Source: an uncultured Thermoleophilia bacterium
GTDB taxonomy: Bacteria; Actinomycetota; Thermoleophilia; UBA2241
DNA: 64,000 bases
Direction: 5' to 3'
NCBI GenBank assembly: GCA_963695395.1
Contig: CAVOGK010000031.1
Span: forward strand, 31,637 to 95,636
The translations under genes were made by a program, and so were the position numbers. The notes beneath the pieces were generated by a model, which saw only the letters and a list, made by a program, of their open reading frames with translations, was not told the origin of the DNA and made no database searches. Positions 26,988 to 54,659 of the stretch are shown here, piece by piece (positions within the stretch are counted from its first letter, which is position 1; each line of letters starts with the position of its first letter).

Positions 26988-27115
26988 TCTCCCGCAGATT
27001 CAGCAACCTACTAGCAACGTGGCATTCTGCCGGGCCCAGGAACACAAAGACTGCAAGGCGGACAATGCCCTCGTAGCTCAGTGGATAGAGCAGGCCTCCT
27101 GGTACCGCAGCCTGG
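26988..27115 (+). repeat. att junction 7: arm, tRNA 5' fragment (27067-27092) and CCGCAGCCTGG
   Basis: First 26 nt identical to the tRNA at 54584, then diverged. Confidence 0.85.
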
Positions 27116-27329
27116 TGTCTATGGGGCACTGAGGCCACTGACGTCGGCTACATGCCGCTGGCGCCCGAGCTGGTCGTACTGAAGCGGTGACACGATCTCT
27201 GATCACACCATCCCGATATCGCGACTCGACGTGACCGTCGTTGACCCTGCAGGAGACCCTGGTGAAAGCGGGCGTCGATCCTGGCCCAGCGACGCGGCAG
27301 AGCTGGCAGTTCTGCTGCTGCGCCACCTG

Positions 27330-27945
27330 GACTTCGTAGCCGCTTCTCGGGCTTGGCGGGTAGCAGGTTCTGGGCCTGCTGGTTGATCTTCGACCTCACG
27401 CGCGGATCTCCAACGTGCAGCGGACGATCGAGGAGGACGAGGACGGCACGCTCCGAGATCCGCTGAAAGAACGGCAAGGCCCGCGCCTGGCCCTTGCCCG
27501 CTGCTGCTGGCGACGAGCTGCGCGTTCCGCCACGGCGCAGAAGGAGATCCGCCTGGGCTAGGGAGGGCCCGGCCTGGGAACGAGGCCGGCCGCGCTGGTC
27601 CCGAAGAAGGATCTGCAACTGATATGGGCCCCTCGACCTTGAGGAGCCAGTGGCGGCAACCGGGCGGCGCCAGAAGACTCGACCTGGATCTGCCGATCCA
27701 TGGCCTGAGCCATCTTCGGCATCTGGTCTACGAGGCCTACGGTCAACAGGCGCAGGTGGCCCGGCGATCCGACCCGGCGACCATGCTGCGCCACGACGTG
27801 CGCCTGACCACCGCCGCGCCGGCCGAAGGCAGTGGCCGGCCTCGACCAGGCTCACGCGGCGGCGCTCGGGGCCGCTGAAGACAAGGTCCTGGAAGGACGC
27901 CCAGCCGCTTGAGGACAACGTCGTCGCGCTCTCCAGCCGACGCCA
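27330..27945 (+). pseudogene. Degenerate integrase C-terminal half
   Basis: TIEEDEDGT, KNGKAR, STLRSQW, LPIHGL, DPATMLRH, DNVVALSSRR across frames. Confidence 0.85.
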
Positions 27946-27973
27946 CGGGCACGTATCATCGCCGCGACCTTTC

Positions 27974-28454
27974 TCAACAACGGCGAGCTTGCCGCGCCAG
28001 GAGCGCTTGAGCACGCGCCTCGACGAGGTCCTTGAAGCGCCCGAGGTCGGTCGCCACCACCTGGTTCACCGCAGAGAGCACTTCGCTCGGCGTCTCGAGC
28101 ACCCGTCCGGCTCCCAGGTCATCGTGAACGTGACGCGGCACGACGACTCGCCGAGCGGCTCGAACGACGCGGAGCCCGAATCCGGCTTCTGACCGGGCGT
28201 CCCGCCGAGGGTCTCCCAGGAGACGCGGCTGTCGCGGGTCTGCTCGGTGATCCGCGCGTCCCACTCGCGGGTCTCGCCCTCGACCGTAGCGAACTCGTCT
28301 CTGACCTTCGCGACCCAGTGCAGGCGGCCGTCGCCGGTCTGCCGGACAGACGCGACGCCCTCCATCCACTGGGGGAAGCTGTCGAACCGGGTCCACTGCC
28401 ATAGGCAGTGGTGACGTCGACGTTCACGTCGATCGACTGTTCTACGGTAGGCAT
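27974..28454 (-). pseudogene. SRPBCC/polyketide-cyclase family gene, frameshifted
   Basis: MPTVEQSIDV, QWTRFDSFPQWMEGV, DLGRFKDLVE in three frames. Confidence 0.75.
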
Positions 28455-28611
28455 GGAGTACGCCTCCTGATCGTCTCAAGGGTTGCCTTCGGCCGAGGCC
28501 AGGGGTGCTGGATGGTACCCAGTCGCCCCCGGCCTCGGCCGGCTCTTGGTGCTCGCGCCGCTCAGGCCGCGGACGAAGCGCGCGTCCGCGTGGCCCGCGG
28601 CGCGACGCTCG

Positions 28612-29349
28612 TCACGCCGCCGGTCGCAGCTCGCTCTTGGGAGCGGTCGCGGCGGTCGCGGGCTCCACGGACTCGTCGGTCTCGAAGCCGAGCTGCTGCA
28701 GACCGACCGCCCTGAACCCCCTGACGACGAGGTAGACGCCCAGCGAGAACTCCCACAGGGCGATCGGGAGTGCCAGGAGCCCCGACATCGCGGAGCCGTA
28801 CTCGTTGGCGCCGAACAACGTGGCCATGGTGGAGGCGATGAGCAGGGGCGCTCCGATGAATCCGATCACGGGCAGGATCCGCGGCACGAGGCGCGACTGG
28901 TAGAGAAGTGAGCCCAGCAGCAGGGCGTTTACGGCCGGAAGGAGGCTTTGGCTGAGGGTGAAGGTCCAGTCATGCAGGCCGACCAGCGTCTGGCCGGTGG
29001 CGAGCGCACCCGCGCCGGCTCCGGCCTGTCGCAAGGTCACGACTGCCAGGAGGGTGAAGACGCCGGCGAAGATGGCGCCGGCTTCCAGGGTGCGGACGGC
29101 GACGAAGCCCAGCGCGACCCCTTCGTTCTGCCGCTTGACCACCGGGTAGAGCGCGACGGCGGTGCCGATGCAGGCGAGGGCCACGATGATCTCCAGGACG
29201 CTGCCGACGAACACACTGGTGTCCGGCCCGGGGCCGACGACGTAGTTCGCTCCGCGCACTGCATTGTAGAGAAACAGGGTCGGGATCGAGACGAAGGTGA
29301 GCAGGTAGAACGCGCCTGCCACCAGCGCTGTCTTTCTAGTCGAAGTCAT
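28612..29349 (-). CDS. DUF4386 membrane protein
   Basis: RKTALVAG, LYQSRLVPR, WEFSLGVYLVVRGF. Confidence 0.85.
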   Translation of the reverse strand: MTSTRKTALVAGAFYLLTFVSIPTLFLYNAVRGANYVVGPGPDTSVFVGSVLEIIVALACIGTAVALYPVVKRQNEGVALGFVAVRTLEAGAIFAGVFTLLAVVTLRQAGAGAGALATGQTLVGLHDWTFTLSQSLLPAVNALLLGSLLYQSRLVPRILPVIGFIGAPLLIASTMATLFGANEYGSAMSGLLALPIALWEFSLGVYLVVRGFRAVGLQQLGFETDESVEPATAATAPKSELRPAA

Positions 29350-29504
29350 GTTGATCGACTCCCAGGGTCGGCTCCTTGCAGAGCCGACGTTCGCGATTAT
29401 TATAATGCTATTTTGTTAGGATACATAGTGGAGGAAAACCCCTACTTGGTCGGGGATGGCCGAGTGTTCCCGGTGCGTCGCAAGTCGAACCCAAGGGGCC
29501 GACC

Positions 29505-29590
29505 ACGAGAGCCGGTCGAGCGTGTCGAGGAGACGATCGTCGAGGACCGCCCCTCGCGTCGCGACCGTTCTCTCACCAGCCTTGCGAGCG
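29505..29590 (+). pseudogene. Highly degenerate integrase tail remnant
   Basis: ERVEETIVED..SLAS versus ERAEETVLED..SL at 7415-7550. Confidence 0.4.
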
Positions 29591-29691
29591 ACTTCTCGCG
29601 CGTGTGAGGAGGCGTAGGCCCTCGAGGGTCACCGATGCGCGTGGCGGGCGGGTGCGGCTGCAAGGGAGTCGGCTAGAGAGGCGGTCTCGGA

Positions 29692-30426
29692 TCAGGCCGG
29701 CAAGCTGGCTCCGGAGTCGACGACCTCAACGCCCTTGACGAGGAGCCAGAGCCCCAGGCCGACTTCCGCGACGAAGCCCAGGACGAAGGCTGGGTAGCTG
29801 ATCGCGGGGTGGGCCGGCAGCAGCAGGGCCTGAAGGAACCAGATCAGGACACCGATTCCGTCGAGCATCAGAAGGACGCCCAGGAACCTGGGAAGGAATC
29901 CGGACTTGTAGACCAGGTAGCCGAGCGGGAACAACCACGTGCCGAAGAACAGCTGCGCCGTGACGAAGCCCGTCTTGTAGACGCCGATGGACAAGTACGC
30001 CAGCCCCTCCAGCTGCGCCGCCGAGAAGGCCTGCAGGTGGTTGGCCGCATCTCCCTGCAACAGCGCGGATAGGAGCGGGAACATGCTTGCGCACTGTATG
30101 GCCACGCCGACCGCGTTGAGCAGTAGGAAGAGCAACGCCAGGTGCTGGTTGACCGGTCGCAGAAGAACGTAGAGACCCCAGGCAGCCATGAGGAAGAGGA
30201 AGGCCGATATCAACGCGACAACAAGAGCGAGCCGGAACGACCAGGCATTCGTGACGATCGACTCGTAGACCTGGTCGACTCCGCCCATCCCGATGTGCCC
30301 AAGCACGCCGGCAAGCACGGACGCCAGGACGAACGCGAGGTAGAAGCCGCCCGCGATCCTGGCCACCTTGTCCGGCGCCAGGTGATCCGTGAGGTTGCGA
30401 GACATCCCGGTCCCTCCTCCAGTCAT
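29692..30426 (-). CDS. DUF4386 membrane protein
   Basis: ARIAG, LFFGTWLFPLGYLVYKSGFLPR, AEVGLGLWLLVKG. Confidence 0.85.
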   Translation of the reverse strand: MTGGGTGMSRNLTDHLAPDKVARIAGGFYLAFVLASVLAGVLGHIGMGGVDQVYESIVTNAWSFRLALVVALISAFLFLMAAWGLYVLLRPVNQHLALLFLLLNAVGVAIQCASMFPLLSALLQGDAANHLQAFSAAQLEGLAYLSIGVYKTGFVTAQLFFGTWLFPLGYLVYKSGFLPRFLGVLLMLDGIGVLIWFLQALLLPAHPAISYPAFVLGFVAEVGLGLWLLVKGVEVVDSGASLPA

Positions 30427-32079: not shown

Positions 32080-32234
32080 CCCGTGCGCCGCACAACGGCC
32101 GCGCGCGGGCGAAGGCGGTCGCCGGGCTCGACGAGGTGACGCGGGCGGCGCTCGAGAGGGCCGAGGAGAAGCTCCTCGAGGACTCGCGGACTGTGCGAGA
32201 CAACGTGGTGTCGCTGGCTGGCCGCAGGCGGTAG
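32080..32234 (+). pseudogene. Integrase C-terminal remnant
   Basis: RAKAVAGLDEVTRAALERAEEKLLED..DNVVSLAGRRR*. Confidence 0.9.
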
Positions 32235-34150: not shown

Positions 34151-34203
34151 TCTTCGCGTCGATTCGGCCACCCCGCCGCCGTTCTCTCGCCGTCTTCCTG
34201 CGC

Positions 34204-34405
34204 GTTTCCCGCAGATTTGGCAGCTTGTTGGCAACTCGTGGTATTCCTGTCCGGACGCTGCGGGACAAAGTACCTGCAAATCGGCACAATGCGCTCGTAG
34301 CTTAGTGGATGGAGCACAGGCTTCCTGAATCCGCAGCCTGGGGTGCCAATCGGGGTACTCTGAGGGTGATTCGGGGTCGTTTGGCGACAGTCCACCGGCG
34401 CCCCG
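34204..34405 (+). repeat. att junction 6 (tRNA 5' half at 34291-34329)
   Basis: 5 mismatches in 39 nt to the tRNA 5' half; followed by TCCGCAGCCTGGGGTGCCAATCGGGGTA. Confidence 0.92.
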
Positions 34406-34462
34406 TTCCGCAGGCCTTCGCCCTCACGGCCTCTCGTCGCAGCCGACCACCATGGGCGACGC

Positions 34463-34816
34463 TCATTCCTCGAGCTCGCGGAAATAGCGGGCGAGCGCCT
34501 CGGCCAGGGCCCTGCCGACGCCTTCGCAGCTCCAGCGCGGTTGGGGGCAGGCCTCGCGGCCGAGGCGCAGGAAGGCGCCGGCGATGGCGCGGGCCTCGAG
34601 GATCGCGCACGCGACCTGGTCCTCCGTCGACGCCGGCGGGGGGAGGGTGCCGTGCTCGTGGCCGATCGTCTCAAGGTGTTCGGCGGGGATGAGGTCGTCG
34701 ACGGAGTGCCTGCGACGGTGCGCGGCCTGCCGGCAGCCGTTCGAGCAGTAGAGGCGCGGCCGGCTTCCAGCTGTCTGTTGGACGGGTGACCCGCACTCGA
34801 GGCAGATGCTCTCCAT
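34463..34816 (-). CDS. Small CxxC..CxxxC Zn-finger protein (element backbone gene)
   Basis: CLECG..RPRLYCSNGCRQAAHRRR plus helical C-terminus; remnants at 15460 and 38461. Confidence 0.75.
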   Translation of the reverse strand: MESICLECGSPVQQTAGSRPRLYCSNGCRQAAHRRRHSVDDLIPAEHLETIGHEHGTLPPPASTEDQVACAILEARAIAGAFLRLGREACPQPRWSCEGVGRALAEALARYFRELEE

Positions 34817-34919
34817 GCTCCCAGGGAGGGCGTCGTCACCCGTTTCGTAACGCAGAGGACGTCGAGTTCGGCTACAGCAGTTGGGCTCGAACGAACACCC
34901 CAGTTTCGGGCCTGCACGC

Positions 34920-34970
34920 GCCCGGGGGCGGGCAGGGTGGACGCGTCGTCGATTGTCGCTTCGCGCCCCC
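34920..34970. repeat. 51-bp G-rich backbone motif, copy 2
   Basis: About 100 bp upstream of the Zn-finger start. Confidence 0.75.
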
Positions 34971-35065
34971 ACCCCTGTCTGAGCTTGCGCAGCATCGCAG
35001 GCGGCCGCGACTCACCCGTTTCGTGACGCGAGGCAACCCGGCGCCTCGTAGAAATCCGGCTAGCA

Positions 35066-35683
35066 TCAGTGCAGCGACCAGGTGGCGTGCGACGCGCTGA
35101 TCGGCATGATCACCTTGGTCGGCTCGAAGCCTTTCTCGACCAGCATGGAGAGCCAGCCGACCGAACTCTTGCCCACGCGGGAGGGGTCCGGCCCACCGGC
35201 CTTCCCCAGGCCCGCCGGGCTGTCCTTGGTGTACACGCCGTCGCTCAACTGGAGGAACTGACAGGCGATGGGTGAGCGTGCCGTGGTCTTGTCGAGGCTC
35301 GTCAGCCGCACCTTGATGCCGTACTTCCACTCGTAGGGGCCGATGAAGTCACCGAACTCGTTGGGGGCGTTGTCGCCCTCCGGATTCGAAAGCCGTTTGA
35401 CGGCGAGGACCGCGACCCGCTCGCTGTGCGTTTTGCCGCTTGTTTGGTCGTACCAGTCGACCTGGACGGTGTCGCCCAGTCGGCCGTTCCAAGAAGGCCC
35501 ACCCCGGTCTGAGATGGTGGCTGCGGCAATGGGCAGGTCGCGTGACTTGGCGCTCGGAGCCGCGGACGGCTGCTGGACCCCATCGCCTCCACTCGCGCTT
35601 CGGGTCGACGCCGGGTTCCCGCAGCCAGCGAGCAGACCGGCTGCCGCGAGAACGAGCGCGCCGACGGCGATGATGTTCCTCAC
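35066..35683 (-). CDS. Hypothetical lipoprotein
   Basis: Lipobox LLAGC; GGAGG RBS. Confidence 0.7.
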   Translation of the reverse strand: MRNIIAVGALVLAAAGLLAGCGNPASTRSASGGDGVQQPSAAPSAKSRDLPIAAATISDRGGPSWNGRLGDTVQVDWYDQTSGKTHSERVAVLAVKRLSNPEGDNAPNEFGDFIGPYEWKYGIKVRLTSLDKTTARSPIACQFLQLSDGVYTKDSPAGLGKAGGPDPSRVGKSSVGWLSMLVEKGFEPTKVIMPISASHATWSLH

Positions 35684-35839
35684 GTTGCGGCCTCCGTGAC
35701 GACGCCGCAGATACTATCCCACGGCAGTCGGCCGAGCGGCTTGCCCGGGAGCAAGCGGCACTCGTCCTGTGACCACAGGCTCGCCGAATCGTGACACCAG
35801 GACGAGACTGGCAGCGACTCCATTTTCGGGATGTCGCGC

Positions 35840-35890
35840 GCCCGGGGGCGGGTGGGGTGGGCGCCTGCCGGTATTCCGCTTCGACCCCCC
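35840..35890. repeat. 51-bp G-rich backbone motif, copy 3
   Basis: Ungapped match to copies 1 and 2; similarity to copy 2 extends ~25 bp further left. Confidence 0.75.
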
Positions 35891-36076
35891 CAACCGGGCC
35901 CCGGCGGTGCACAACTGACCTGAATTCACACCTGCACTGAAGAAACCACCGCTCTCCCTGCGTCTTGTAGATGACCTGATCGATTCGAAGGGGGCATGCG
36001 GTGTTCTCGACCCGGTTCTCGCCCACGGAGGCTGTAGCATCTGGCGCGCAGCCTCGCGAGTCGCTCAGGAGCCTGC

Positions 36077-36664
36077 GTGGGCGCTCGAGCTACTGGGGGG
36101 CACTTGATCGACCGAGGCGGGGGAGTCACGGCGAGTCTGCAGCTGGCCGCCGCGCGCCGCGGCGACCTCGACGCCTTCGTCGCCATCCTGAAGGGTCACG
36201 ACCGCCAGCTGCGCGCCATCGCCTGGCGCCTCCTCGGTGAGCGCAGCCTCATGGACGATGCCCTCCAGGAAGTCGCGATCAAGACCGCCCGTGCGCTCCC
36301 CGAGCTGCGCGACGACGCGGCCCTGGCGGCCTGGCTGCGGCGCACGACCTATCGCACCTGCCTCGACCTGCTGCGCCGCGAGGTGAGACTGGACGTGCGC
36401 GCGCCGGAGGACATGCCGGAGGGCCGCGCCGCAGCCGGCGACCCGGCCGACGAGCTCGCCGACCGCGACCTCGTGGCGCGCCTCCTCGCGACCCTCTCGC
36501 CGGAGCAGCGCGCGGCGGTCGTGCTGGTCGACCAGGAAGGCCTCGACTACGCGGCGACGGCCGAGCTGCTCGGCGTCCCCGCGGGCACCGTCGCCTCGCG
36601 GCTCGCGACCGCCCGCGCGAAGCTGAGGCGGGAAATGGCGCCGGCGCTGGGGCGGGAGGGATGA
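36077..36664 (+). CDS. ECF sigma factor
   Basis: DDALQEV, AWLRR, AELLGVPAGTVASRL; start uncertain. Confidence 0.85.
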   Translation: MGARATGGHLIDRGGGVTASLQLAAARRGDLDAFVAILKGHDRQLRAIAWRLLGERSLMDDALQEVAIKTARALPELRDDAALAAWLRRTTYRTCLDLLRREVRLDVRAPEDMPEGRAAAGDPADELADRDLVARLLATLSPEQRAAVVLVDQEGLDYAATAELLGVPAGTVASRLATARAKLRREMAPALGREG

Positions 36665-38655: not shown

Positions 38656-38671
38656 CTGCCACACCGCCCGG

Positions 38672-40060: not shown

Positions 40061-40124
40061 GGAATCGGCCCGCGGCGCCCTCCGCCGCCGGCCCTGGAGT
40101 CGTCAGCCCGCCGATTCCCTCTTC

Positions 40125-43272: not shown

Positions 43273-43300
43273 TCCGGACGGCGGAGGACGAGGAGGTCCG

Positions 43301-43948: not shown

Positions 43949-43976
43949 GCTGCCCATCCGGCCGCGCCGCCATCAC

Positions 43977-44236
43977 GTTTCCTGCAGCTTTAGCAACTTT
44001 TTCGCAACTCTGGTATTCTGGTCCGGCTGTCGCAGAGGAAAAACCCCTGCAAATCGGCACTTTGCCCTCGTAGCTCAGTGGATAGAGCACAGGTTTCCTA
44101 AATCCGCAGCCTAGGGTGCCAATCGGGGTACTTCGAGGGTGAATCGGGGTCGTTTGGCGACAGTCCGCTGACGCCCGGAGCCGGTTCGAGCCTGCAGTTT
44201 CCTGCAGAATTAGCAACTTTTTAGCAACTTGCGGGA
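43977..44236 (+). repeat. att junction 3, complete attP-like (tRNA 5' half at 44064-44102)
   Basis: 39/39 identity; GTTTCCTGCAG..GCAACT..GCAACT at both ends. Confidence 0.95.
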
Positions 44237-44294
44237 CGCGGATGCACGCCGTTGATCGGCGAGGGCGATCACCCTCCTGATGCTAGCAGGGCCT

Positions 44295-45056
44295 CTACAG
44301 GCTCTGGAGCGCCTCGGCCGCGTGCTTGCCTGCATCGGAGGCCGGGTCGATGCTCACAGCCTTCTGGAACGCGACTTTCGCCTCCGCAAGGTAGTCAGCC
44401 GACTTCGCCTTGTCCTTCGCCTCGCGGGCCTCGGTCTGCAGGAAGATGCCCTTGTTGAGATGCGCGGCCTGGAACTCGGGGTTCTGTTTGATGACGACCT
44501 CGATCTGCTTGAGGCCCTCTTCGTGATGCCTCATGTAGAAGAGCGAGACCGCGAGGTCGGTGCCCACACTCGGATCGCCAGGCTGCTTCTTCCAGGCGGC
44601 CCGGTACACCTGGGAGGCGGCCTTGAAGTACGCCTCTCCGCCAGCTGAGTCATCCTTGTTGAAGGCGTCGATGCCCTGGTCGTAGAGGCCGTTGGCCCGG
44701 TCGACGAGCTCGGAGTAGCTGCCGGACGTATCGGCCGCGACCGGCGCCGCCGCCGGCGCCGGGTCGCCGCTCGAGCCTCCGCCGGCGGCGAAGACGATCG
44801 CCACGACGACGACTGCGATCGCGGCGAAGCCCAACCAGACCCACAGAGGCGAACGTGAGCGGCCGAATGGGGCCGACTCCGCATTTCGCTCAGCGGCCGG
44901 CCTCGCGGACTGCGGCCGCTGCGCCGTGGCCGGCGATCCCCCGGCAGGCTTCCTCGCCGGGCGACGAAGCGCCGCGCGGGCCTTCGTCAGGTCGTTCCCG
45001 CACTCGGGACAGAACTTCGCGTCATCGGCCTCGCGGCCGCACTCAGGACAGTACAT
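44295..45056 (-). CDS. Zinc-ribbon, TM and TPR protein
   Basis: CPECG..KFCPECG, TM helix, TPR-like C-terminus. Confidence 0.8.
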   Translation of the reverse strand: MYCPECGREADDAKFCPECGNDLTKARAALRRPARKPAGGSPATAQRPQSARPAAERNAESAPFGRSRSPLWVWLGFAAIAVVVVAIVFAAGGGSSGDPAPAAAPVAADTSGSYSELVDRANGLYDQGIDAFNKDDSAGGEAYFKAASQVYRAAWKKQPGDPSVGTDLAVSLFYMRHHEEGLKQIEVVIKQNPEFQAAHLNKGIFLQTEAREAKDKAKSADYLAEAKVAFQKAVSIDPASDAGKHAAEALQSL

Positions 45057-45316
45057 CGATGATCGGTCTCCTTGGGCTGGGATCTGGTCATCGGTGGCGC
45101 GGCGATCTGTCTCACTCACCGCCACTCGAGTAGAGAAAGTCGACAGATGCTGTTGACTTTGTCCATGATACTGAGCGGGCCAAGGCCGTCAAACCAGAGC
45201 GCGCCAACGATATCGACGGCGTCGGTCGTTGCCGCGGCGCCCTCTTCGGCGCGAACGACCGAGGGCCGGCGGACAGCCGGCCCTCGGGGTCGTCACGTTC
45301 TTGCAGGCGGAAGGGC

Positions 45317-46108
45317 TTACCAGCCGAAGCCGCCCCACATGCCGCCGAGTCCCATCCAGCCGCCGGCGCCGTCGCGCATGCGCGCTTTGGTCACGGACAG
45401 GTGGTGCTTCGCGTAGAAGGTCTTGACCTGGGCACGGTGATGCGCGCGCATGGTCTTCAGAGCCCTCTGCGCCGCGTCGCTCTTGAGGCGCTTGTGGTAG
45501 CGCTCGGCCCAGCGGTCGACGTGCGCCGTCTGGTGGCTGCGCATGTCGAGCCAGCGGCCGAAGGCGCGGGGATGGTTCGCCATCCAGGCGGCGCCGTGGC
45601 CGCTGCCCCACATGTGGGAGGCGTCCCACTCGTGGTCGCCCATCATGCCGCCCTTGTCCCAGCCGCCCCACATGCCGTCGGAGGGGCAGGTCCAGGCAGC
45701 GCCGTTCCCATGCTGCTCGTAGAAGGCCTTCCTGTCGTTCCAATGCGCGGTCCACAGAGCGTGCAGGGCCTGCTGCGCCGCGGGGCCCTTGAGGTCGGCC
45801 TTGTAGGTCTCATGCCAGGTCTGCATCGCCTGCTGCTGGTCGACGCGCAGCTGCGTCCAGGTGGCCAGGGCGTCGGGGTTGTTCTTCAGCCACGAAGCAC
45901 CGCTGCCGGTGCCCCACATGCCGGTGCCGCCCCAGCGGCCGTCGCCGTTCCAGAGGCCGCCGCCGCACCAGTCGCCGCTGTGATCGCCCTCGTGGTCGCC
46001 GTCGCCCATCATGCCGCTGGGGCTGGCGCCGGCGATCGGCACGAGGAGCAGCGCCGCGAGCGCGACGACCGCGAGGGCGGTGAGAAGCGCCTTGAAGCTC
46101 AGTTTCAT
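45317..46108 (-). CDS. Secreted Gly/Trp/Met/His-rich protein (paralog of 1319-2134)
   Basis: Identical C-terminus RMRDGAGGWMGLGGMWGGFGW. Confidence 0.75.
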   Translation of the reverse strand: MKLSFKALLTALAVVALAALLLVPIAGASPSGMMGDGDHEGDHSGDWCGGGLWNGDGRWGGTGMWGTGSGASWLKNNPDALATWTQLRVDQQQAMQTWHETYKADLKGPAAQQALHALWTAHWNDRKAFYEQHGNGAAWTCPSDGMWGGWDKGGMMGDHEWDASHMWGSGHGAAWMANHPRAFGRWLDMRSHQTAHVDRWAERYHKRLKSDAAQRALKTMRAHHRAQVKTFYAKHHLSVTKARMRDGAGGWMGLGGMWGGFGW

Positions 46109-46237
46109 CAGGTGACCATCCTTTGACTCATCGAGGGGTGATGTCGGGGCGCTGAAGATGAGAGCGCTCCGGATGCTGGAGGACTTGTGAGCCGCGCCGT
46201 CCGGACCTCCTTCGCGGTCGCTTGCTGCTTCCGCTAT

Positions 46238-46267
46238 CTGGAACACGCGAGGCCCGCCTTTCTTACA
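46238..46267 (-). promoter_or_regulatory. Putative ECF promoter, copy 3
   Basis: TGTAAGAAA-N12-GTGTTCCAG. Confidence 0.65.
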
Positions 46268-46288
46268 GTCGCGCGGCGAAACGGGCGA

Positions 46289-47510
46289 TCAATCGCCGGA
46301 GCCGTCGTGGCCGCCGGACGTGTCGCCACCGTCGTGGGTGGTCGTCGTGCTGGTCGAATGAGTGCGTGGTGGAGTCCGTGGTGCTGGTGCCGCTGTCGTG
46401 CGTCGTCGTCGCAGCGTCGCCGGCGGCGTCGTGCGTCGTGGTCGAGCCGCCGCCGGCATCACCCGCGTCGTGGGTGGACGTCGTCGTGGAGTCATGCGTC
46501 GCAGCGTCATGACCGCCGCCGGAGTCGTGACCAGCCGAGCCCGCGTGGCGGGCGGCCCCGCCGTGCTCGCCCCGCGGCGTGCCATGGCCCGCCTGATGCC
46601 GGTCGTGCATCGCGGTGTAGGGTGACGCAGGTCGGGCGCTGGCGCCGATGGGAGCCACGGTCGCCGCGGCCGCTGCGGCCGCCGCAGGCCCTCGGTCGCT
46701 CCTGCCCCCCTCCTTGACCGCGACCGCGCCGCCGCCGATGACGACGGCCGCGGCGGCGGCCGTGATCGCCGCCTTGGTCGTGACGGCGGCGCCGATCTTG
46801 GCCAGCAGCCCGGCGCCGGCGGGGCCGGCGGCCGAGGCGATGTCGGGTGAAGGCAGCGCGTGCACGGGCGCGAGGCCCGCAGGCAGCGGCGGCATCGCCA
46901 GCAGCGCGGCCGGCACGCTGAGGGGCATGAGCACGAGGCCGAGCGCGGCCGGGGCGGCGGCGTCCGCGCCGGCGAGCTTGGCGAACACCGTCTTGAACGA
47001 GGCGCGGGCGCGGTGCACGAGCACGTCGGCGTTCGGCCGCGAGACCTCCATGACCTCGGCGATCTCCTCGGGCGGCAGGCCCTGGAGGTCCTTGAGCACG
47101 AGGGCGGTGCGGTAGCGCTCGTTCATCTCGCCGAGCGACTGCTCGACCAGCGCCACGGTCCGGGCGCGCTCGAACTCGTCGACGCCGGAGGCGGCCTGCT
47201 CGAGGCCGGCGTCGCCGCCGCCGTCGAGCTTGCGCCGCGAGCGCAGGTGGTTGAAGCAGGCGTTGGTGGCGACGCGGTAGAGCCAGGCGCGCAGGCCGAA
47301 CGACTCCTCGTCCGCCTGCGGCAGCTGGTCGAACGCCTTGATGAACACTTCCTGGGTCACGTCCTTGGCCTCCTCGCGGTCGCCGAGCACCCGAGCGCAG
47401 AGGTTGTAGATGGGTGCGTGGTACTCGCCGTAGAGGCGCTCGAAGGCGTCGCGGCGCCCGGCCCGGAGGCCGCGCACGAGATCGGGGGCTGTGGCGGGAG
47501 GTGAAGGCAT
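46289..47510 (-). CDS. ECF sigma factor with TM and His/Thr-rich extension (frameshift near 46355)
   Basis: Sigma core nearly identical to 2323-3485; repeated TTHD units. Confidence 0.85.
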
Positions 47511-47623
47511 CAGGGAAGGAGTTCCGAGCTCAACGGTACTCTCATCCTGCCGGCCTTCAACCGTTCCCGCCGCACGAGGGCCGGCCGCTGCCGGCCGACC
47601 CTCGCGACTTGCGTCGTGATCGT

Positions 47624-48090
47624 TCAGTCACCGCCGTGGCCGCCGCCGTGGCCGCTGTCGTGACCGCCGCTCGAGACGTGCGTCTGCTGGCTGGTCTCGT
47701 GCGTCTGCTGGCTGGTCTCGTTCTCGTGGACGCCCGGGTTGCTGGCGGAGCCGCTGTGATCGCTCTGCTTGCTCTGAGCGCTCTTCCGGACGCGCTCGGC
47801 GTGCCGGGCCTCGGCCTTATGGGCGCGCTGCTGCGCCTGGGCGTGCTTGCGCTCGACGCGGCGCGCGTGGGTCTTCGCGCTTCTGCGCCTCGCGGACGTG
47901 GCTGCCCGACTGGTGGTCGATGAGCTGGGCCAGCTGCTTGTCCGTGAGCGTGACCGCGTGCTTGGCGGGCGTCTTGTCGACTGCGCTGTGCGTCCTGCGC
48001 CTTGGTGAGCTGCTGCACGCCCGCCATGGCGACGCTCGTCATGGCGAACACGATCACCGCCGTGGCGACGATGGTCTTGAGTGCCTTCAT
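47624..48090 (-). CDS. Secreted His/Gln-rich protein, frameshifted (paralog of 3600-4085)
   Basis: MKALKTIVAT start and GHGGGHGGD end in different frames. Confidence 0.65.
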
Positions 48091-48124
48091 GGTCTCTCCC
48101 TTGGGTTCGTTGTCCTTGCACCTG

Positions 48125-48154
48125 CTAGAACACGGGGAGGCGGCGTTTCTTACA
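48125..48154 (-). promoter_or_regulatory. Putative ECF promoter, copy 4
   Basis: TGTAAGAAA-N12-GTGTTCTAG. Confidence 0.65.
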
Positions 48155-49063
48155 CCGGGCTTTTCGCGACCTTGGTTCGGCCGAGGGGTGCAAGGGTCAG
48201 CCGCGGGTCCGCCTGAAACGAAACGGCCAAGCTGCCAGTCGGTATCCCCGCTGGCCTTCGCTGGCGACCACCTGCCATGCATAGCGACGCCGGAGCTTCT
48301 CGACGGCTAGGTGCACGTCGATGCTTGCGGCGCGCGCGAGCCGTGAACATGGCCGCCTCCTTCCCGCTCATCGATCCCAAGAGAAATAGCTACCCCGGCC
48401 CTGTTGGGAATCGGTGAAGACGCGCCCATCTCTCAGGCGGCGGCGCCTTCCAGGCGTCCGCCCGCGGCTTCGCGCTCTCCGAGCAGGAACAGCTCCGCGC
48501 TGCCGCAGCACGGACAGGCGACGATGCCCGAGTGGGAACGATGGACCCCAATCGGGACCAGGAACTCCTCCGTGCACACCGTGCATGCCAGGTCGACTTG
48601 CTTGCTCATCTCTTCTCCTCATCATCTGTGACGATGAGCTTCTACCGGATGCGTGCGAGAACACGGCGAGACCAGTGTGAGGGTGCCATGAGCGTGCCGG
48701 CGGGAAGTGTCGACGCCGCGGACGAGATTCACGGGCTGCTGACGTCCGGCTGACCCTCTCCTAACAGAGCGGCGCCAGACTGTCGCCATGATGACGCGGC
48801 GCATGATGATCCGGCGTCACCTCCGCAGCGCCCGGGCCTCCGCGCTGACGGAGGAGGAACGCCGGCTCGAGCTTCGCGAGGCCGAAGCGAGGATCGCACA
48901 CGGCCCCGGCAAGTCGGCCGAGTCCGAGGCTTCCCCCTCCTCGGATGACGCGGGCGCCTCCGGGGCCTCCGAAGCGTGGCCCGAGGGGACCGGCGTCAGT
49001 GACCCCCGCTGATGCCGGCCCGCCTCGGTCGCGGCCGGGGGCGGGGCCGACTGCGGGCGTCCG

Positions 49064-49609
49064 TCAGTCCTGGGCCGACGGCTCGCCCTCGTCCTGCGAG
49101 TCGAGTCCGTTATGCGGCGCGTGGTTCTGGGCCAGGGCGACGAGCTCGCGGGCCTGCAGCAGCCAGACGAGCTCGGCGCTCCGTGACTTCCTCGCCGACA
49201 GGTGCACCCGCGCGAGACCGCCCTTGCTGAGGACGACGTGGGCCCCGGTGAGCTTGTGGATGACCGTCGTGAACTCGGGGTTGTGACCGACGAGCATGAC
49301 GGCGTCGGCTTGAGAGTGCTCGCGAAGGAGGCGGCGAAGATCCTTCATGCCGAAGCCCCTGCCGAGGCTGTTCGCAGTGCTGAGCTTGCCCTCGAGGCCG
49401 AGCGCCGGCGCCACGATCTCGGCGGTGCGCTGGGCGCGTTCCAGGGGGCTCGTGATGAGGACGTCGGGCGAGACCTTCAGGCGAGCGAGGGTCCAAGCTG
49501 AATGCGCCAGTGAGGAGATGCCGGCCTGGGTAAGGGGCCTGCTCGCATCCTCGCCGTCCCACTCAGATCGCGGGACGCTCTGGCCGTGTCTCAGGAAGTA
49601 GAGTTCCAT
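49064..49609 (-). CDS. sixA: SixA-like phosphohistidine phosphatase
   Basis: LYFLRHG, RPLT, TSPL.RA..TA, LVGHNP. Confidence 0.85.
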   Translation of the reverse strand: MELYFLRHGQSVPRSEWDGEDASRPLTQAGISSLAHSAWTLARLKVSPDVLITSPLERAQRTAEIVAPALGLEGKLSTANSLGRGFGMKDLRRLLREHSQADAVMLVGHNPEFTTVIHKLTGAHVVLSKGGLARVHLSARKSRSAELVWLLQARELVALAQNHAPHNGLDSQDEGEPSAQD

Positions 49610-49813
49610 TCAGTCAGCCCTCTCAGTCCTTTTCGCGAAAGGGCGTCGTCCTTCCCATCTGCGACGCCAAGGAATGCTATCGCATCACTGCGGCTCGGGT
49701 GAACGTCGGGCCCGGTGCGTGCTCGCGGCGGACTGCTGCCGGATACGCCGGACAGGTCGACAATGCGCCCGCACGCTGGCTGAATGGGCGAAGAGCGTGA
49801 CGGACGGCTGCCG

Positions 49814-49950
49814 GTTTCCTGCAGAATTTCGCAACTCTTTCGCAACTCTGGTATTCTGGTCCGGCTGTGGCAGAGGTAAAACCCCTGCAAATCGGCACAA
49901 TGCCCTCGTAGCTCAGTGGATAGAGCACAGGTTTCCTAAATCCGCAGCCT
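49814..49950 (+). repeat. att junction 2 (tRNA 5' half at 49902-49940)
   Basis: 39/39 identity, followed by TCCGCAGCCT; rest of the right arm missing. Confidence 0.95.
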
Positions 49951-50034
49951 GCTACGCCCCGAGCAAGACCCGCCGGGCTGCGATCCGAGCTTGCTGCGAT
50001 TGACGTCGGGCGCGCCAGTGACACTAACGATGCG

Positions 50035-50388
50035 CTACCGTGGCGACCGGATTCGCACAAGTCCGGCGGAGAGAACGGTGAACGCCCCGGGCATCTCGAC
50101 ACCGTGCTCGCCGATCACCTGCGCAACGGCATCCGCCTTGCCTGTCGAGGGTAGCCCCGGCAAGCGCACAAGAAGGATGCCGAACGCGACTCGACGCAAG
50201 CGGAACACGAGTTCGCCGAAATCCTTGTCGGCGGTCATGAGGATGCGCTCATCGGCGTTGGCGAGCTCAAGCACGGCCTCGTCGGTGATGCCCGGAGAGA
50301 GTTCGGCAACGTAGACGACGTCGTGGCCGACGGACCGCAGCCGGGTGACGATGGCTGAGTCGACGCCTTCGTCGGCGAGTAGCTTCAC
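50035..50388 (-). CDS. DUF5615 PIN-like toxin
   Basis: MKLLADEGV, GHDV, DEAVL, T.DKDFGEL. Confidence 0.88.
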   Translation of the reverse strand: MKLLADEGVDSAIVTRLRSVGHDVVYVAELSPGITDEAVLELANADERILMTADKDFGELVFRLRRVAFGILLVRLPGLPSTGKADAVAQVIGEHGVEMPGAFTVLSAGLVRIRSPR

Positions 50389-50621
50389 GCCACCGACTTG
50401 GAGACCGGATAGGCGACGTCAGCGCGGAGGACCTCGGCCCCGAAGCGCACGGCGGAGAGCACGCCCTCGCGCGTGAGCCGAGGATGGGCCTCCAGGAGTT
50501 GCTCGATCGTCCGGCCGGCGCCGAGCTCATCGAGGATGGACTCGACCGTGATGCGTGTGCCCTCGACGACGGGCTTGCCCATCATGACGTCGGGGTCAGA
50601 TTTGATTCCTTGCGTAGCCAT
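50385..50621 (-). CDS. DUF433 antitoxin
   Basis: DPDVMMGKPVVEGTRITVE; overlaps the toxin start. Confidence 0.9.
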   Translation of the reverse strand: MATQGIKSDPDVMMGKPVVEGTRITVESILDELGAGRTIEQLLEAHPRLTREGVLSAVRFGAEVLRADVAYPVSKSVA

Positions 50622-50893
50622 TGCGAGAACCTCCTTGCCTGGCTGCAACGATACCACCGGATGCCCGACTCGTACCGAAAGGGTCTATCCGCTGATCGAC
50701 CGCGATTCCCACGAGGTCGTCTCTGAGGGCGCGAGTGCCACGTCTTTCGATACGTTCATGTTCAGCCTTCAGGGCAGAACAGAGCTGGTGGGCGACTGAT
50801 CACGAAGGGCCGTGGGGGGAACGGTCACTTCGGAGGCCGCGGGTCGAGGCGTTCGCTGCAGATTCCCTCCGACCGGCGCGATAGTGTCACTCC

Positions 50894-52198
50894 ATGAACC
50901 CCGAGCGCCTCACCGGCTTCGTCTACCCCGTGAAGAAGAACGGCGTCCCCGTGCGCGGCCGCTGGCAGCTGTGGGTGAACCTGCCGTCCGAGCCTGCGTT
51001 CGACCGGGACGGGCAGCCGGTCCTTGACTCCAAGGGCCACCAGAAGCAGCGCTACCCGAAGACCACCAAGGTGGTCGAGGCCAAGGGCAAGAAGGCCGCC
51101 GAGCGCCTGCTAGAGACATGGATCGCGGAGCTCGAGGCGCACCGCACCATCGACCCCGACCGCCTGAAGCTCGCGGAGCTCCTCGACCGCTGGCTCGAGG
51201 CGACGCGGGGCGAGATGCGCGTCGCCAGCTACAACTCCTACAGGCGCATCCGCCGGATCCACGTCGACCCGGCCCTCGGCCAGGTGCTCGCCGGCAAGCT
51301 CACCCGCGCGCAGCTCTCGACCTACTACGCGGCGAAGATGCGCGGGAGCAAGAAGAGGAAGCCGCTGGCCGAGACCACCGTCGCCCACCACCACGCGATG
51401 CTCAAGACCGCCTACAACTGGGCGCTCGAGGAGGAGCTGCTGCTCGTGAACCCGGCGCTGCGCGTCAAGAACCCGCCGGCGCTGCGCCCCAAGACGCGCC
51501 CCGTGTGGAGCATGGAGGAGATCGCGAGCACGGTGATCAGGGCGAGCGGCCTGCAGGTCCACGCCGCCGGCGTGCTCGCCGGCTTCTCCGGCCTGCGCGT
51601 CGGGGAGATCGCCGGCCTGCTCTGGTCCGACCTCGACCTCGCGCGCGGCTTCGTCACCGTCTGCCGCACCATCGAAGAGGACGACGACGGCACGCTGCTC
51701 GAGTACCCGCCGAAGAACGGCAAGGCGCGGACCGTGCCGCTGCCCGCCGCCGCCTGCGACGAGCTGCGCGTCTGGCTCGCGGCGCAGAAGGAGTACCGCC
51801 TGGCCCAGGGCCCGGCGCTGGAACGAGGCCGGCCGCGTGGTGCCGAAGAAGGACGGCACGCCAGATGGCGCCCTCGACCTTGAAGAGCCAGTGGTGGAAC
51901 TGGGTGGCGCGGCAGAAGATCGACCCGCACCTGCCGATCCACGGCCTGCGCGACTCGTTCGGCACCTGGGTCTACGAGACCTACGGGGTCAAGCAGGCGC
52001 AGGAGTGGCTCGGCCACTCCGACCCGGCGACCACGCTGCGCCACTACGTGCGCCTGACCACCGCCGCGCGGGCGAAGGCCGTGGCGGGGCTCGACGAGGT
52101 GACGCGGGCGGCGCTGGAGCGGGCCCAAGAGACAGGTGCTCGAGGACGCGCAGTCCGTGCTCGACAACGTCGTCTCGCTCGAAAGCAGGCGTCAGTAG
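50894..52198 (+). CDS. int: Tyrosine recombinase/integrase (a few frameshifts in the 3' third)
   Basis: Catalytic R (SGLRVGE), K (PKNGK), HxxR (HGLR), H/Y (LGHSD..RHY); arm-binding-type N-terminus. Confidence 0.92.
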
Positions 52199-52271
52199 TC
52201 TCTCCAGCTGACTCCTCCACTGCCGCCTGATGCTGCATTCCTGCCGCTTCCGTGAGCATCAGGCAGGCGAT

Positions 52272-53054
52272 CTAACCCGCAATCAAGACTCGGACGCCTT
52301 GCCTCGCAAGGCCTTCGGCGAAAGCTTTCGGGAGCCGGGTTGTGATGAGGGCGTCGACTTCGGGCCAGCCAACCACCCGCGCGCGAGCGTTGAATCCAAG
52401 CTTGCCCGGTGAGGCGAGCACGATCGTCTGAGAGGAGCTCTCGCTCATCGCTCGAGCGGACGCTGCGTCCTCAAGCGAGAAGTCCCGGACGCCGCCATCG
52501 AGAGTGGCTCCATCCGCGGCGACGAAGGCCAGGTCGGCGTGAAGGGTGCGGATCGTGTCAACGGACAGGGGTCCAGTCGTGCCGAAGGACGTCGCACGCA
52601 GCTGACCCCCGATGACGATGACTTCGATGCCCGCACTGCCGGCCAATAGCTGAGCGATGTTCAGTGCTCCCGTCACGATGGTCAGATGCCGGTGAACGAG
52701 GCATTGCGCGAGCGCGAAGGAGGTGGTCCCGTCCGTGAGGAACACGGTCATGCCGTCCTTGATGAGGGTCGCCGCCCGCTGGGCGATGAGGCGCTTCTCC
52801 CGCCGATCGCGGCTCTGCCGTATCTCGAACTCCTCCTCCAGGGTCGAGTGGCGCTGGACCGCCCGCGCTCCCCCTCTCGTTCGGGCAAGCAGGCCGAGGC
52901 GCTCGAGCAGGGCAAGATCACGCCGCGCGGTCGCCTCGCTGGCTCCGGTGGCGTCCATGATGTCGGACACGGACGCCACCGCCTGACGCCTCAGCAGTTC
53001 CTCGATCCGGCGCCGACGCTCCTCCGCAACGACGCGCCCCTCCTTGCGTTCCAT
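52272..53054 (-). CDS. DeoR/GlpR family regulator
   Basis: ERRRRI, SEATARRDL, RTRGGA, DGTT. Confidence 0.92.
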   Translation of the reverse strand: MERKEGRVVAEERRRRIEELLRRQAVASVSDIMDATGASEATARRDLALLERLGLLARTRGGARAVQRHSTLEEEFEIRQSRDRREKRLIAQRAATLIKDGMTVFLTDGTTSFALAQCLVHRHLTIVTGALNIAQLLAGSAGIEVIVIGGQLRATSFGTTGPLSVDTIRTLHADLAFVAADGATLDGGVRDFSLEDAASARAMSESSSQTIVLASPGKLGFNARARVVGWPEVDALITTRLPKAFAEGLARQGVRVLIAG

Positions 53055-53192
53055 GATCGCTTCCCTTCTCAGGTGCTGACGGAAGACTCAGCAAAACACT
53101 CATGTTCAGTCAATCACGTCATTGACCTGACTGGAAACGACTCGAATACTTCAGTAGCGAAGGGAAGCGCTATCGACCGGAGGAGGAAACGG

Positions 53193-53663
53193 ATGTCGAC
53201 CGAGTCCAGCGTGCTGAAGGCCACCGGCAGTTGCCTGTGCGGAGGCGTCAAGTATGAGGTGAACGGTCCCCTTCGGGACATCCTCTACTGCCACTGCGAG
53301 AACTGCCGCCGCACGCACGGCAACTTCTCCGCGTACACATCGGCTCGGCGTGAGGACCTCGGCATCACCGAGAGCCGCACGCTCAAGTGGTACCACACCG
53401 ACAAGGACGTGACGCTTGGCGTGCAACGCGGCTTCTGTTCGGAGTGCGGCTCGAGCGTCTTCTGGGATCCTCAGGGCTACGAGTACGTCTACATCTCGGC
53501 GGGGAGCGTCGACCCGCCCACGGGCATCAAGGGCGCTGGCCACATCTGGCTCAGCGAGGCGAGCGACTACTACGAGATCACTGACGATCTGCCCAGGGCC
53601 GAGGGTTCGTCCAAGGGCCTCTTCCTGGGCACGCCGCACGATGATCCGTTGAAGTCGTCCTGA
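53193..53663 (+). CDS. GFA/CENP-V family protein
   Basis: GSCLCGGV, CHCENCRR, RGFCSECGS; GGAGG RBS. Confidence 0.92.
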   Translation: MSTESSVLKATGSCLCGGVKYEVNGPLRDILYCHCENCRRTHGNFSAYTSARREDLGITESRTLKWYHTDKDVTLGVQRGFCSECGSSVFWDPQGYEYVYISAGSVDPPTGIKGAGHIWLSEASDYYEITDDLPRAEGSSKGLFLGTPHDDPLKSS

Positions 53664-53708
53664 CGGAGGCGCGCGACGTAGCACTCCGGCGGCCGGCAGC
53701 CTGAATCC

Positions 53709-54593
53709 ATGCCTCTCGCCGACGGACAGAGGCTGCCGGCCGACATCGGACTGCCGAGCCAGGTCTACGCTGAGAAGCAACTACGCGAGGCGCTGATGCT
53801 GCTTGCGCGCTGGAGCAGTCTGGTTGAGGTCGACGCGGTCGGCCTCCACACGCTGCTCTCGCCCGATAACCGTCGCGCAGCGCGTGAGAGTGGCCTTGCG
53901 TTCACCGTCCATGGTCCCTACGGGCCCGCGTTTGACCCGGCCAGCCCCGAGGAGTCGGAGAGGCATCGCACGATTGAAGCCCATCGCCGTCATGCTGAGG
54001 CAGCTGCTGCGATCGGCGCTCAATGCTACGTCGTGCATCCTGACCGAGGATCACAGGGCATTCCATGTGTCGCGGGGCGGCGAGCGCTTGAGCGAAGCCT
54101 GCGTGACCTGGAGGAAGTCCAGGCGTCGAGTGGCGTGCAGGTCGCGGTCGAGAACATGGCGACGGGCGCTGCATGGAGGTTCACCGCACCTGGAGACCTC
54201 GACCTCGGCGAGATCGGGTTGGTGCTCGACACGGGTCATGCTGCCATCTGCGGCACTCTGGACCCGTTCCTGACGAATCCTCGAGCGAGGCTCGTGCACG
54301 TTCATCTGCATAGCAACGCCGGCCCAACCGAGGAGCGAGATCCTCATCGCTGCCTCGGTGACGGGATCGTCGACGCCCTCACCGTGCTTACCGTTGCCAG
54401 AAGAGCGGAGGCTACGGTAGTCCTTGAACATGGCGAGGTTGGGACGGCGCTGGCCAGCATCGCCTATCTGTGGAAGCACGGGCTTGCTGGCGAGGCGTTT
54501 CCTGCAGATTTCGCAACTTTTTCGCAACTCTGGTATTCTGGTCCGGCTGTCGCAGAGGAAAAACCCCTGCAAATCGGCACAATGCCCTCGTAG
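53709..54593 (+). CDS. Sugar-phosphate isomerase/AP-endonuclease-2 TIM-barrel protein
   Basis: TVHGP, VVHP, VENM, LDTGHA, HVHLHSN, DPH; ORF runs through the att arm. Confidence 0.75.
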   Translation: MPLADGQRLPADIGLPSQVYAEKQLREALMLLARWSSLVEVDAVGLHTLLSPDNRRAARESGLAFTVHGPYGPAFDPASPEESERHRTIEAHRRHAEAAAAIGAQCYVVHPDRGSQGIPCVAGRRALERSLRDLEEVQASSGVQVAVENMATGAAWRFTAPGDLDLGEIGLVLDTGHAAICGTLDPFLTNPRARLVHVHLHSNAGPTEERDPHRCLGDGIVDALTVLTVARRAEATVVLEHGEVGTALASIAYLWKHGLAGEAFPADFATFSQLWYSGPAVAEEKPLQIGTMPS

Positions 54594-54622
54594 CTCAGTG
54601 GATAGAGCACAGGTTTCCTAAA
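54497..54622 (+). repeat. att junction 1: arm plus 5' half of the intact tRNA
   Basis: Near-identical to 43977-44102 and 49814-49940. Confidence 0.95.
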
Positions 54623-54659
54623 CCTGGTGTCGCTGGTTCGATTCCAGCCGGGGGCACCA
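54584..54659 (+). tRNA. tRNA-Arg(CCT)
   Basis: Full cloverleaf: GCCCTCG/CGGGGGC acceptor, CAGGT-TTCCTAA-ACCTG anticodon arm, GCTGG-TTCGATT-CCAGC T arm, encoded CCA. Confidence 0.97.

Follow-up and report, generated by a model that had tools for sequence, protein, structure and literature searches.

Tandem islands at a single tRNA gene have been surveyed before. The available part of the Islander article reports 3919 islands, 159 with a 5' fragment of the tRNA gene (tDNA) and 2083 anticodon-centred, and lists 125 tandems of two or more islands but only 4 of three or more among 2168 genomes (PMC4383910). In the accessible text of a review of archaeal elements, recombination with the 5'-distal part of a tRNA gene is called "considerably less frequent" than with the 3' part, a 2002 paper by Zhao and Williams and several archaeal cases being cited, and elements with tyrosine recombinases are said to form arrays by re-using their site (PMC6563490). 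For other elements, the available portion of a third article describes a route of integration, decay to a cis-mobilizable element (CIME) and re-integration (PMC5704250). Here we analyse a tRNA-Arg(CCT) locus from an uncultured Thermoleophilia bacterium, lying in a stretch of 64,000 nucleotides (the window) of contig CAVOGK010000031.1, where six small modules are stacked upstream of the tRNA gene between junctions that repeat its 5' half. The tandem islands of Islander and TIGER, as far as their available descriptions go, resemble it in having a tyrosine integrase, a rebuilt tDNA, displaced fragments in the same orientation and an anticodon-centred element attachment site (attP). They differ in that the displaced pieces here are 5' fragments, and in that seven junctions plus decayed relics extend over about 63 kb. 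The array represents a known process, in mirror image and to an unusual depth, and not a new gene-capture machine, and by analogy it appears to have formed by the known route of integration, decay and re-integration. What is new is the combination: the integrase family, the rare 5'-half orientation, the tiny modules without transfer genes, and deep arrays found throughout the genus. The literature searched contains no report of deep 5'-type arrays, of this system, or of any Thermoleophilia case.

The host assembly is a metagenome-assembled genome (MAG) of 3.1 Mb in 51 contigs, with a completeness of 79% and a contamination of 4.6%. The single tRNA that ARAGORN detects in the window is tRNA-Arg(CCT), + strand, 54584-54659; Rfam agrees and detects nothing else there, and of the 47 tRNAs detected genome-wide no other is a CCT isoacceptor. 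A repeat search returns a 31-nt unit present seven times, with start-to-start spacings of 7224, 5600, 1440, 2733, 5838 and 4682 nt, as well as longer repeat families of 93-249 nt. The block common to the seven junctions, all on the + strand, consists of an arm of about 100 bp and tRNA positions 1-39. The tRNA-like parts begin at 27067, 34291, 39891, 41331, 44064 and 49902 (J1-J6), and the intact tRNA at 54584 belongs to J7. A 23-nt pattern of the tRNA 5' half, with up to 3 mismatches allowed, has 6 matches where 0 are expected (100 shuffles), the seventh copy, J4, being too diverged for this cut-off. Across all 51 contigs, an nhmmer profile of arm plus 5' half recovers exactly 7 full junctions (E 1.7e-44 to 1.6e-23), each on the array contig and the + strand, and nhmmer --max on the whole genome yields no further junction upstream of J1, only three arm-motif fragments. 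Pairwise identity between junctions is 72-97%. In the alignment they are alike as far as TTCCTAAA (the anticodon loop and one further base), and there the partners switch: J7 runs on as the tRNA 3' half, and J1-J6 run on as (T/A)(C/G)CGCAGCCT, changing just past the anticodon loop into an arm of the CCGCAGCC type. This right arm of about 150 nt is conserved in J2, J3 and J5 and weaker in J1 and J4; that of J6 is of a second type, having only its first ~11 nt, TCCGCAGCCTG, in common with the others. Core to core, modules 1-6 measure 7230, 5600, 1439, 2734, 5838 and 4681 nt. An earlier note, made from the sequence alone, had described seven junctions with an arm and a tRNA 5' half, six of them switching arm, and modules of 7.2, 5.6, 1.4, 2.7, 5.8 and 4.7 kb; repeats, alignment and profile bear out the former, and the core-to-core lengths match the latter.

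A single alignment holds the attachment (att) sites of all four kinds, and their sole common block is tRNA positions 1-39. The empty site, attB, is found in a sister species (G026), where a native upstream region precedes the whole tRNA. Two metagenome contigs (L075 and L082) supply attL, with a 5' half that lacks the left (P) arm and is followed by the right (P') arm. J5 (43965-44252) is a complete internal attP-like site made up of P arm, 5' half, core and P' arm, and J7 is the attR type, the P arm (54484-54583) leading into the whole tRNA. In this four-way alignment the partners change directly after TTCCTAAA. The native upstream region of G026 is unrelated to the arm, so the arm is element DNA. 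The comparison has the textbook pattern of tyrosine-integrase recombination at the anticodon loop, where the earlier note had also placed the crossover; the exact cleavage positions are those we infer. The element donates the tRNA 5' half and the region upstream of it, which is the rare "reversed" orientation. Zhao and Williams reportedly described in 2002 such a "reversed target orientation" for elements recombining with the 5'-distal part of a tRNA gene. Elements of that kind likewise lie upstream and restore the 5' part of the gene. Two of the signs by which Islander recognises an island are present at the locus: an intact tDNA accompanied by cognate end fragments in the same orientation, here six 5' fragments upstream on the + strand, and an empty site in G026.

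The other junctions are preserved to differing degrees. J2 (34194-34480) and J3 (39800-40077) are attP-like, the former with 2 mismatches to the 23-nt pattern. J6 (49801-49951), recognised by repeats, alignment and profile, joins a P arm and tRNA positions 1-39 to the second-type right arm. J1 (26968-27252), the outermost recognisable junction, has a 2-nt deletion in its 5' half and the most diverged P arm except for that of J4. J4 itself (41243-41512), 29 bp past an integrase stop, has a strongly diverged arm, 5' half and core. Origin as a piece of a different tRNA was considered for J4 and rejected, its 5' half being no closer to any of the 47 genome tRNAs; from its sequence it is read as a decayed half of the Arg type.

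Both arms contain paired GCAACT hexamers with an 11-nt period, as in J5 (43993-44009 and 44213-44229), the P' arm of J3 (40040-40056) and the P arm of J7 (54513-54529). The window holds 6 exact pairs against 0 expected, each on the + strand and located either in a P or P' arm or at an orphan site, and they are putative arm-type binding sites. The orphan motif (24126-24163, + strand, pair at 24147-24163) lies 58 bp past the stop of a decayed integrase and is, by its sequence, probably a collapsed eighth junction. In the sister species G015, an intact internal integrase has a right arm 100 bp further on, with neither left arm nor tRNA half (G015:C3 ~472,600-472,745; 52607-52743 of the concatenated stretch), apparently another collapsed junction. 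A TGGTATTCT box is conserved in the left arm about 58 nt ahead of the tRNA, and in J7 it has the form of an extended -10-like box. The J7 arm substitutes for the native upstream region of the tRNA, and because that region now lies some 63 kb away, the arm must supply the tRNA promoter, a predicted function; a simple sigma-70 consensus scan of the arm found no promoter.

A model of array growth can be proposed from this anatomy. The attP of the element would carry the tRNA 5' half (positions 1-39) and about 100 bp of its own upstream arm. Integration would set the element upstream of the tRNA and rebuild the gene by joining the incoming 5' half to the 3' half of the chromosome, the earlier 5' half being pushed outward each time. 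The next element would then enter the rebuilt tRNA, so that the array would grow at its tRNA end while older modules shift distally. Displaced modules would decay: their integrases would be frameshifted, cut from the 5' side or deleted, their junctions would erode or collapse, and their cargo would remain. Some modules would become, or perhaps come, integrase-less and thus CIME-like. The order of these events and any present-day activity are what we infer, and we hold tandem accretion of small integrative islets, by one tyrosine integrase family at the anticodon loop of tRNA-Arg(CCT), to be the probable origin of the array. Accretion at one tRNA had been proposed in the earlier note and is supported here.

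The integrase of module 6 (50894-52195, + strand, PF00589) is a tyrosine recombinase and is 91-93% identical, over most of its length, to an intact relative of 433 amino acids. It is interrupted by +1 frameshifts at three places: close to 51818, close to 51860 and at 52127-52131. With a cut-off of 27.1 bits, PF00589 scores 81.6 bits in an intact relative (P0006) and 33.2 bits in the N-terminal piece from the window (P0001). The catalytic motifs of tyrosine recombinases are Arg, His-x-x-Arg, His/Trp and Tyr, and the alignment shows conserved box motifs GLRVGE, HGLRDS, LGH and LRHYV, also in the two pieces from the window. Models of the N-terminal SAM-like core-binding domain score slightly or well under their cut-offs (PF14659, 22.1 against 22.6 bits; PF24624, 17.4 against 27). 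In some short-read metagenome contigs a base is missing at 51818 and at 51860/51861, although the gene copy from which they come is unassignable; the frameshifts may be real or may be assembly errors. Within this genome the family is confined to the array locus. Metagenomes give 118 matches, many of them 70-97% identical and many fragmentary, and the relatives come from MAGs of uncultured Thermoleophilia and Actinomycetota, presumably long-read assemblies. Of 36 related loci, 18 have a tRNA-Arg(CCT) downstream of the integrase and on its strand, at a distance of about 90 bp to 3.9 kb from the integrase stop. One relative (L018), with a 67%-identical integrase, lies on a contig labelled as a beta proteobacterium, which reflects either mis-binning or transfer outside Actinomycetota. 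A phage or plasmid origin was considered and rejected: no entry of the phage and plasmid collections reaches 30% identity to the integrase, and an IMG/VR search with it gave no match.

Remnants were sought by running a profile of 15 integrase relatives (425-455 amino acids) against the six-frame translation of the contig. They occur in four of the six modules (1, 2, 3 and 6, counting the near-complete copy) and in the distal part of the island, all on the + strand and facing the next junction. A decayed integrase of roughly three-quarters length (23019-24068) has lost about amino acids 57-140 and contains a stop and frameshifts; further out there is a C-terminal remnant (7384-7548, profile 372-429), and a piece of the integrase 5' leader occurs at 16229-16288. 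Directly past the right arm of J1, a diverged remnant (27379-27943) covers about profile 244-432, and module 1 holds a second, C-terminal one (32100-32231, profile 390-433), which suggests a lost junction between the two. Module 2 has a weak C-terminal remnant (38512-38640, profile 390-432, E 5.7e-5). In module 3 an internal deletion has fused profile positions 32-70 to 413-433 (41047-41214). Modules 4 and 5 have no integrase trace on the same strand at a profile domain E of up to 1. In all, the island contains at least seven scattered copies or remnants of the integrase, each facing a junction, and most are C-terminal stubs, as expected from deletions that eat the integrase from its 5' side. 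The earlier claim that only the tRNA-proximal module has a near-complete integrase holds within the segment it described; it overlooked the remnants of modules 1-3 and the decayed copy at 23019-24068. Islander, in the available description, asks for an integrase of its own in every tandem member. Here there are remnants in four of six modules, with the module 6 copy near-complete but frameshifted, and none in two; given modules of 1.4-7.2 kb with mostly decayed integrases, the array would not be called by that rule.

Comparison with the empty site gives the true extent of the insertion. In G026 the distance from the tRNA to the conserved chromosomal flank upstream is 1.2 kb; here it is about 63 kb, the counterpart of the flank being at contig position ~22,900, 8.7 kb before the window start. 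Measured against G026, the inserted DNA is therefore about 63 kb, roughly 2% of the 3.1-Mb assembly, and not the 27.6 kb (26988-54659) first assigned to the array. By the same flank measure, or as a lower bound where a contig ends, sister species hold ~8 kb (G004), 37 kb (G006), more than 42 kb (G035), at least 46 kb (G002) and at least 96 kb (G015). A junction is matched in 27 of the 36 sampled genomes of the genus, with up to 9 matching places in G015, seven of them on its array contig; outside the genus the tRNA half alone matches. Another 11 genomes have arrays, of 2-6 full junctions each. G006, the closest relative compared (93% core-flank identity), and G035 (89%) are both colinear with the distal island. 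In contrast, G006 has nothing corresponding to the 25 kb adjoining the tRNA (J2 to J7); its own interval measures 5.8 kb. Distal parts that are shared and tRNA-proximal parts that are lineage-specific fit polar growth, and the polarity perceived in the earlier note stands on the same observation. Of 22 adjacent pairs of junctions, 14 show a profile score that climbs toward the tRNA, and score and position correlate with rho of at least 0.2 in five of six arrays and 0 in one. In five related loci (L001, L003, L004, L016 and L031) the tRNA-Arg(CCT) is followed, 1.2-9.5 kb downstream, by a second copy of its 3' half, suggesting conventional 3'-type islands on its other side; no such copy occurs downstream of the tRNA in the window.

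Two blocks have moved between species, each with one end at a core. Positions 51769-54622 of the window, comprising the integrase 3' end, a DeoR regulator, a GFA-domain gene, a TIM barrel gene, the P arm and the 5' half, have a 96.9%-identical counterpart in an internal module of G002, and this match ends exactly at the core. Positions 41357-44232, that is module 4 with J5, are 97% identical in G075 and begin at the core of J4. Core-flank identity to G002 and G075 is 84-88% (86-87% to G075), so exchange or acquisition must be later than the species split, and the mobility of modules proposed from the sequence alone is borne out. These breakpoints also bear on whether the 130-260-bp junctions have simply served as portable homology for RecA-dependent exchange, the integrase acting only in rare founding events. 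Arm identity between species is indeed 93-98%, against 77-93% for their core flanks, the orphan site at 24126-24163 and the arm-only site of G015 resemble collapses between P and P' motifs, and the array differs internally from G006 by 10.5 kb. Homologous exchange should nevertheless end within the arms, whereas the G002 block stops at the anticodon-loop core and the G075 block starts at the J4 core; moreover, attL sites with a non-element upstream region exist, and the cargo is unrelated between modules, so duplication is no explanation. We regard this account as very unlikely. An assembly or binning artefact, such as strain variants fused into a chimera or a repeat joined wrongly, is scarcely credible: the MAG is in 51 contigs with the completeness and contamination given above, and the integrase has single-base frameshifts, but the seven junctions are too different from one another (72-97%) to be collapsed repeats, the distal parts are colinear with contigs of two other species, independent assemblies also hold module 4 with J5, and the right-hand part of module 6 together with its junction, as unbroken stretches, and the other 11 genomes have full junctions of their own.

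Junction-to-junction intervals were then counted as modules in stretches from 12 genomes, with an integrase trace accepted at E 1e-3. A trace is found in 18 of 29 modules and none in the remaining 11. Three integrases are uninterrupted and full-length, one tRNA-proximal (G002) and two internal (G015 and G035). When ten modules were compared, eight of them integrase-less, they had the arms alone in common, that is the P' arm at one side and the P arm with the 5' half at the other. The integrase-less modules fit equally well a CIME-like class moved in trans or rapid loss of the integrase after integration. The proximal arm is under selection because it is part of a working tRNA gene.

Such modules could also be explained by a platform of the integron or CIME kind, in which att-bounded cassettes without integrase, each a full attP plus 1-5 cargo genes, circularise and are loaded in trans by a resident integrase. 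The absence of any trace from those 11 modules, four of them merely 2.5-3.0 kb long, would be expected on this account, as would the lack of a shared backbone gene and the integrase-less state of the tRNA-proximal module in G017, G028 and G007. Module 4 with J5 would be such a unit, as its 97%-identical counterpart in G075 also has no integrase, its left breakpoint lies at the core beside the 86-87% flank, and ~75% homologues of its operon are found at other chromosomal places, as if captured. Several facts count against it, however. The 18 modules with traces include every stage of 5'-to-3' truncation, module 3 displaying a deletion in progress, and internal modules hold intact integrases. 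No intact integrase of the family was found for G017 even though its proximal module is integrase-less, so loss after integration clearly happens. The cargo lies on both strands with its own regulators (TetR, DeoR, ECF sigma), unlike promoterless cassettes, and none of the 20 junction-bearing metagenome contigs has a terminal overlap. We consider loading by a resident integrase unlikely, and it is likewise improbable that cassettes captured in trans (a 260-bp attP with one to five genes) stack polarly and are traded between species as units. The earlier note had favoured one integrase that repeatedly loads integrase-less mini-elements in an integron-like manner. This does not agree with remnants in four of the six modules and upstream of them, with two of three intact copies in relatives being internal, or with both-strand cargo under its own regulators.

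Tandem accretion by the integrase family is therefore retained as the probable explanation, but several observations weigh against it. The sole near-complete integrase in the window carries three frameshifts. Of the 29 modules counted, 11 have no integrase trace, and three of these (in G017, G028 and G007) are tRNA-proximal with well-preserved arms, although a strictly polar model makes them the youngest; module 4, too, is 97% identical in a second species without an integrase. Upstream of J1 there are integrase relics with no recognisable junction. The gradient of decay is imperfect, J4 being far more diverged than its neighbours, and the profile behind it was made from the junctions of the window itself and is thus biased toward them. 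The segment 17451-27966 (10.5 kb) is internal and absent from G006, which calls for a deletion in G006 or a non-terminal insertion. Finally, the metagenome contigs examined contain no recombination product, excised circle or empty-site read. The search for terminal overlaps, a sign of circularity, covered 20 contigs with the core-plus-arm pattern that are short, and its negative outcome is weak. The best contig sets (soil and sediment, Logan) reach a best share of 0.33. Where contigs of four runs match 34701-54700 at 90% likeness, their joints are the integrase ends of relatives cross-mapped to arms (for example 41204 to 54499, or 52109 back to 41150), and are uninformative on circles and empty sites.

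Other described systems share some of these features. Like the accretion of ICESt1, an integrative and conjugative element (ICE), with CIMEs in streptococci, and the tandems of integrative and mobilizable elements (IMEs), the array contains modules, here 4 and 5, that fit the definition of a CIME, being flanked by att sites and devoid of integrase traces. Unlike them, it uses the 5' side of the tRNA, its modules are smaller and more numerous, and a Pfam scan of about 70 open reading frames (ORFs) of the window, chosen by G+C content at third codon positions (GC3) so that small genes may have been missed, found no conjugation, mobilisation or replication family. The relaxase, coupling protein and type IV secretion system (T4SS) of a conjugative or mobilisable parent are thus absent from the ORFs scanned. 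Elements of the pSAM2/SLP1 type from actinomycetes integrate at the 3' end of a tRNA and carry rep and FtsK-like tra genes. The locus shares with them an actinobacterial host, a tyrosine integrase and a tRNA target, but it is entered on the 5' side and the scanned ORFs contain no rep or FtsK-like tra domains. With integrons it shares a polar array of small cargo modules between recombination sites, the newest beside the primary site. Integrons differ in that several integrase genes here travel inside modules, with no single one at the head; in that the sites are attP-like, about 260 bp long and with arm repeats, not attC; in that the cargo has both orientations and its own regulators, whereas integron cassettes are mostly promoterless and in one orientation; and in that the primary site is a tRNA gene and not an attI beside intI.

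The locus makes one tRNA gene the long-lived main growth zone of a small genome, and among sister species the inserted amount ranges from nothing to at least 96 kb. The arrays are a natural time series of island decay, from intact integrase to C-terminal stub to nothing, and they provide a compact new set of integrase, attP and attB from an uncultured actinobacterial class. If the integrase-less modules were mobile in trans, they would represent a second, independent route to an integron-like cassette array; an integron analogue would then be built on tRNA-half att sites, with tRNA expression dependent on element-borne DNA.

The cargo differs from module to module. Between J6 and the integrase, module 6 has adjacent, overlapping genes on the - strand (50038-50657) for a DUF433 protein of 90 amino acids and a DUF5615 (PIN-like) protein of 117, a pair that we take, from what is known of these families, to be a type II toxin-antitoxin system; this putative pair could stabilise the youngest module. 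From the integrase stop to the P arm (52275-54590) follow a DeoR regulator (-), a GFA-domain gene (+) and a xylose-isomerase-like TIM barrel (+). Module 5 (44298-49609, - strand) encodes a zinc-ribbon/tetratricopeptide (TPR) protein, two proteins without clear families, an extracytoplasmic function (ECF) sigma fusion and a histidine phosphatase. Module 4 (41492-43945, + strand) encodes an ABC ATPase, a putative permease without a Pfam match and a TetR regulator. The homologues of this operon (41386-43964), about 75% identical, lie elsewhere on the chromosomes of many genomes of the genus (G004:C13, G028:C4, G026:C4 and others), and module 4 seems to be the carrier of a captured chromosomal operon.

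The older, distal part of the insertion (1-26967) consists of accessory genes and integrase relics, without recognisable junctions. These 27 kb encode a phosphonate-binding protein, a CNNM transporter, a TetR regulator, a zinc-dependent alcohol dehydrogenase (ADH), DUF4386 paralogues, corrinoid proteins, proteins resembling uroporphyrinogen decarboxylase (URO-D) and a GntR regulator. Directly upstream of the decayed integrase at 23019, a group at 19468-23103 comprises a URO-D-like methyltransferase, two B12-binding corrinoid proteins and GntR. Four DUF4386 paralogues form two pairs, at 11184-13030 in the distal island and at 28615-30426 in module 1. Among the small ORFs beside the arms there is no Xis-like match, only the DUF433/DUF5615 pair and an ORF of 169 amino acids (34466-34972, - strand) beside the right arm of J2. 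Partial copies of the latter occur at 15506-15848 and 38413-38556 and in the arrays of relatives; it belongs to no Pfam family, has only weak HNH-like PHROG matches, and may be a backbone gene of the element. A block of 2.9 kb is present twice at 78% identity, at 1310-4155 in the distal island and at 45307-48158 in module 5, where it includes the ECF-sigma fusion gene; related copies are found in the arrays of G006, G015 and G035.

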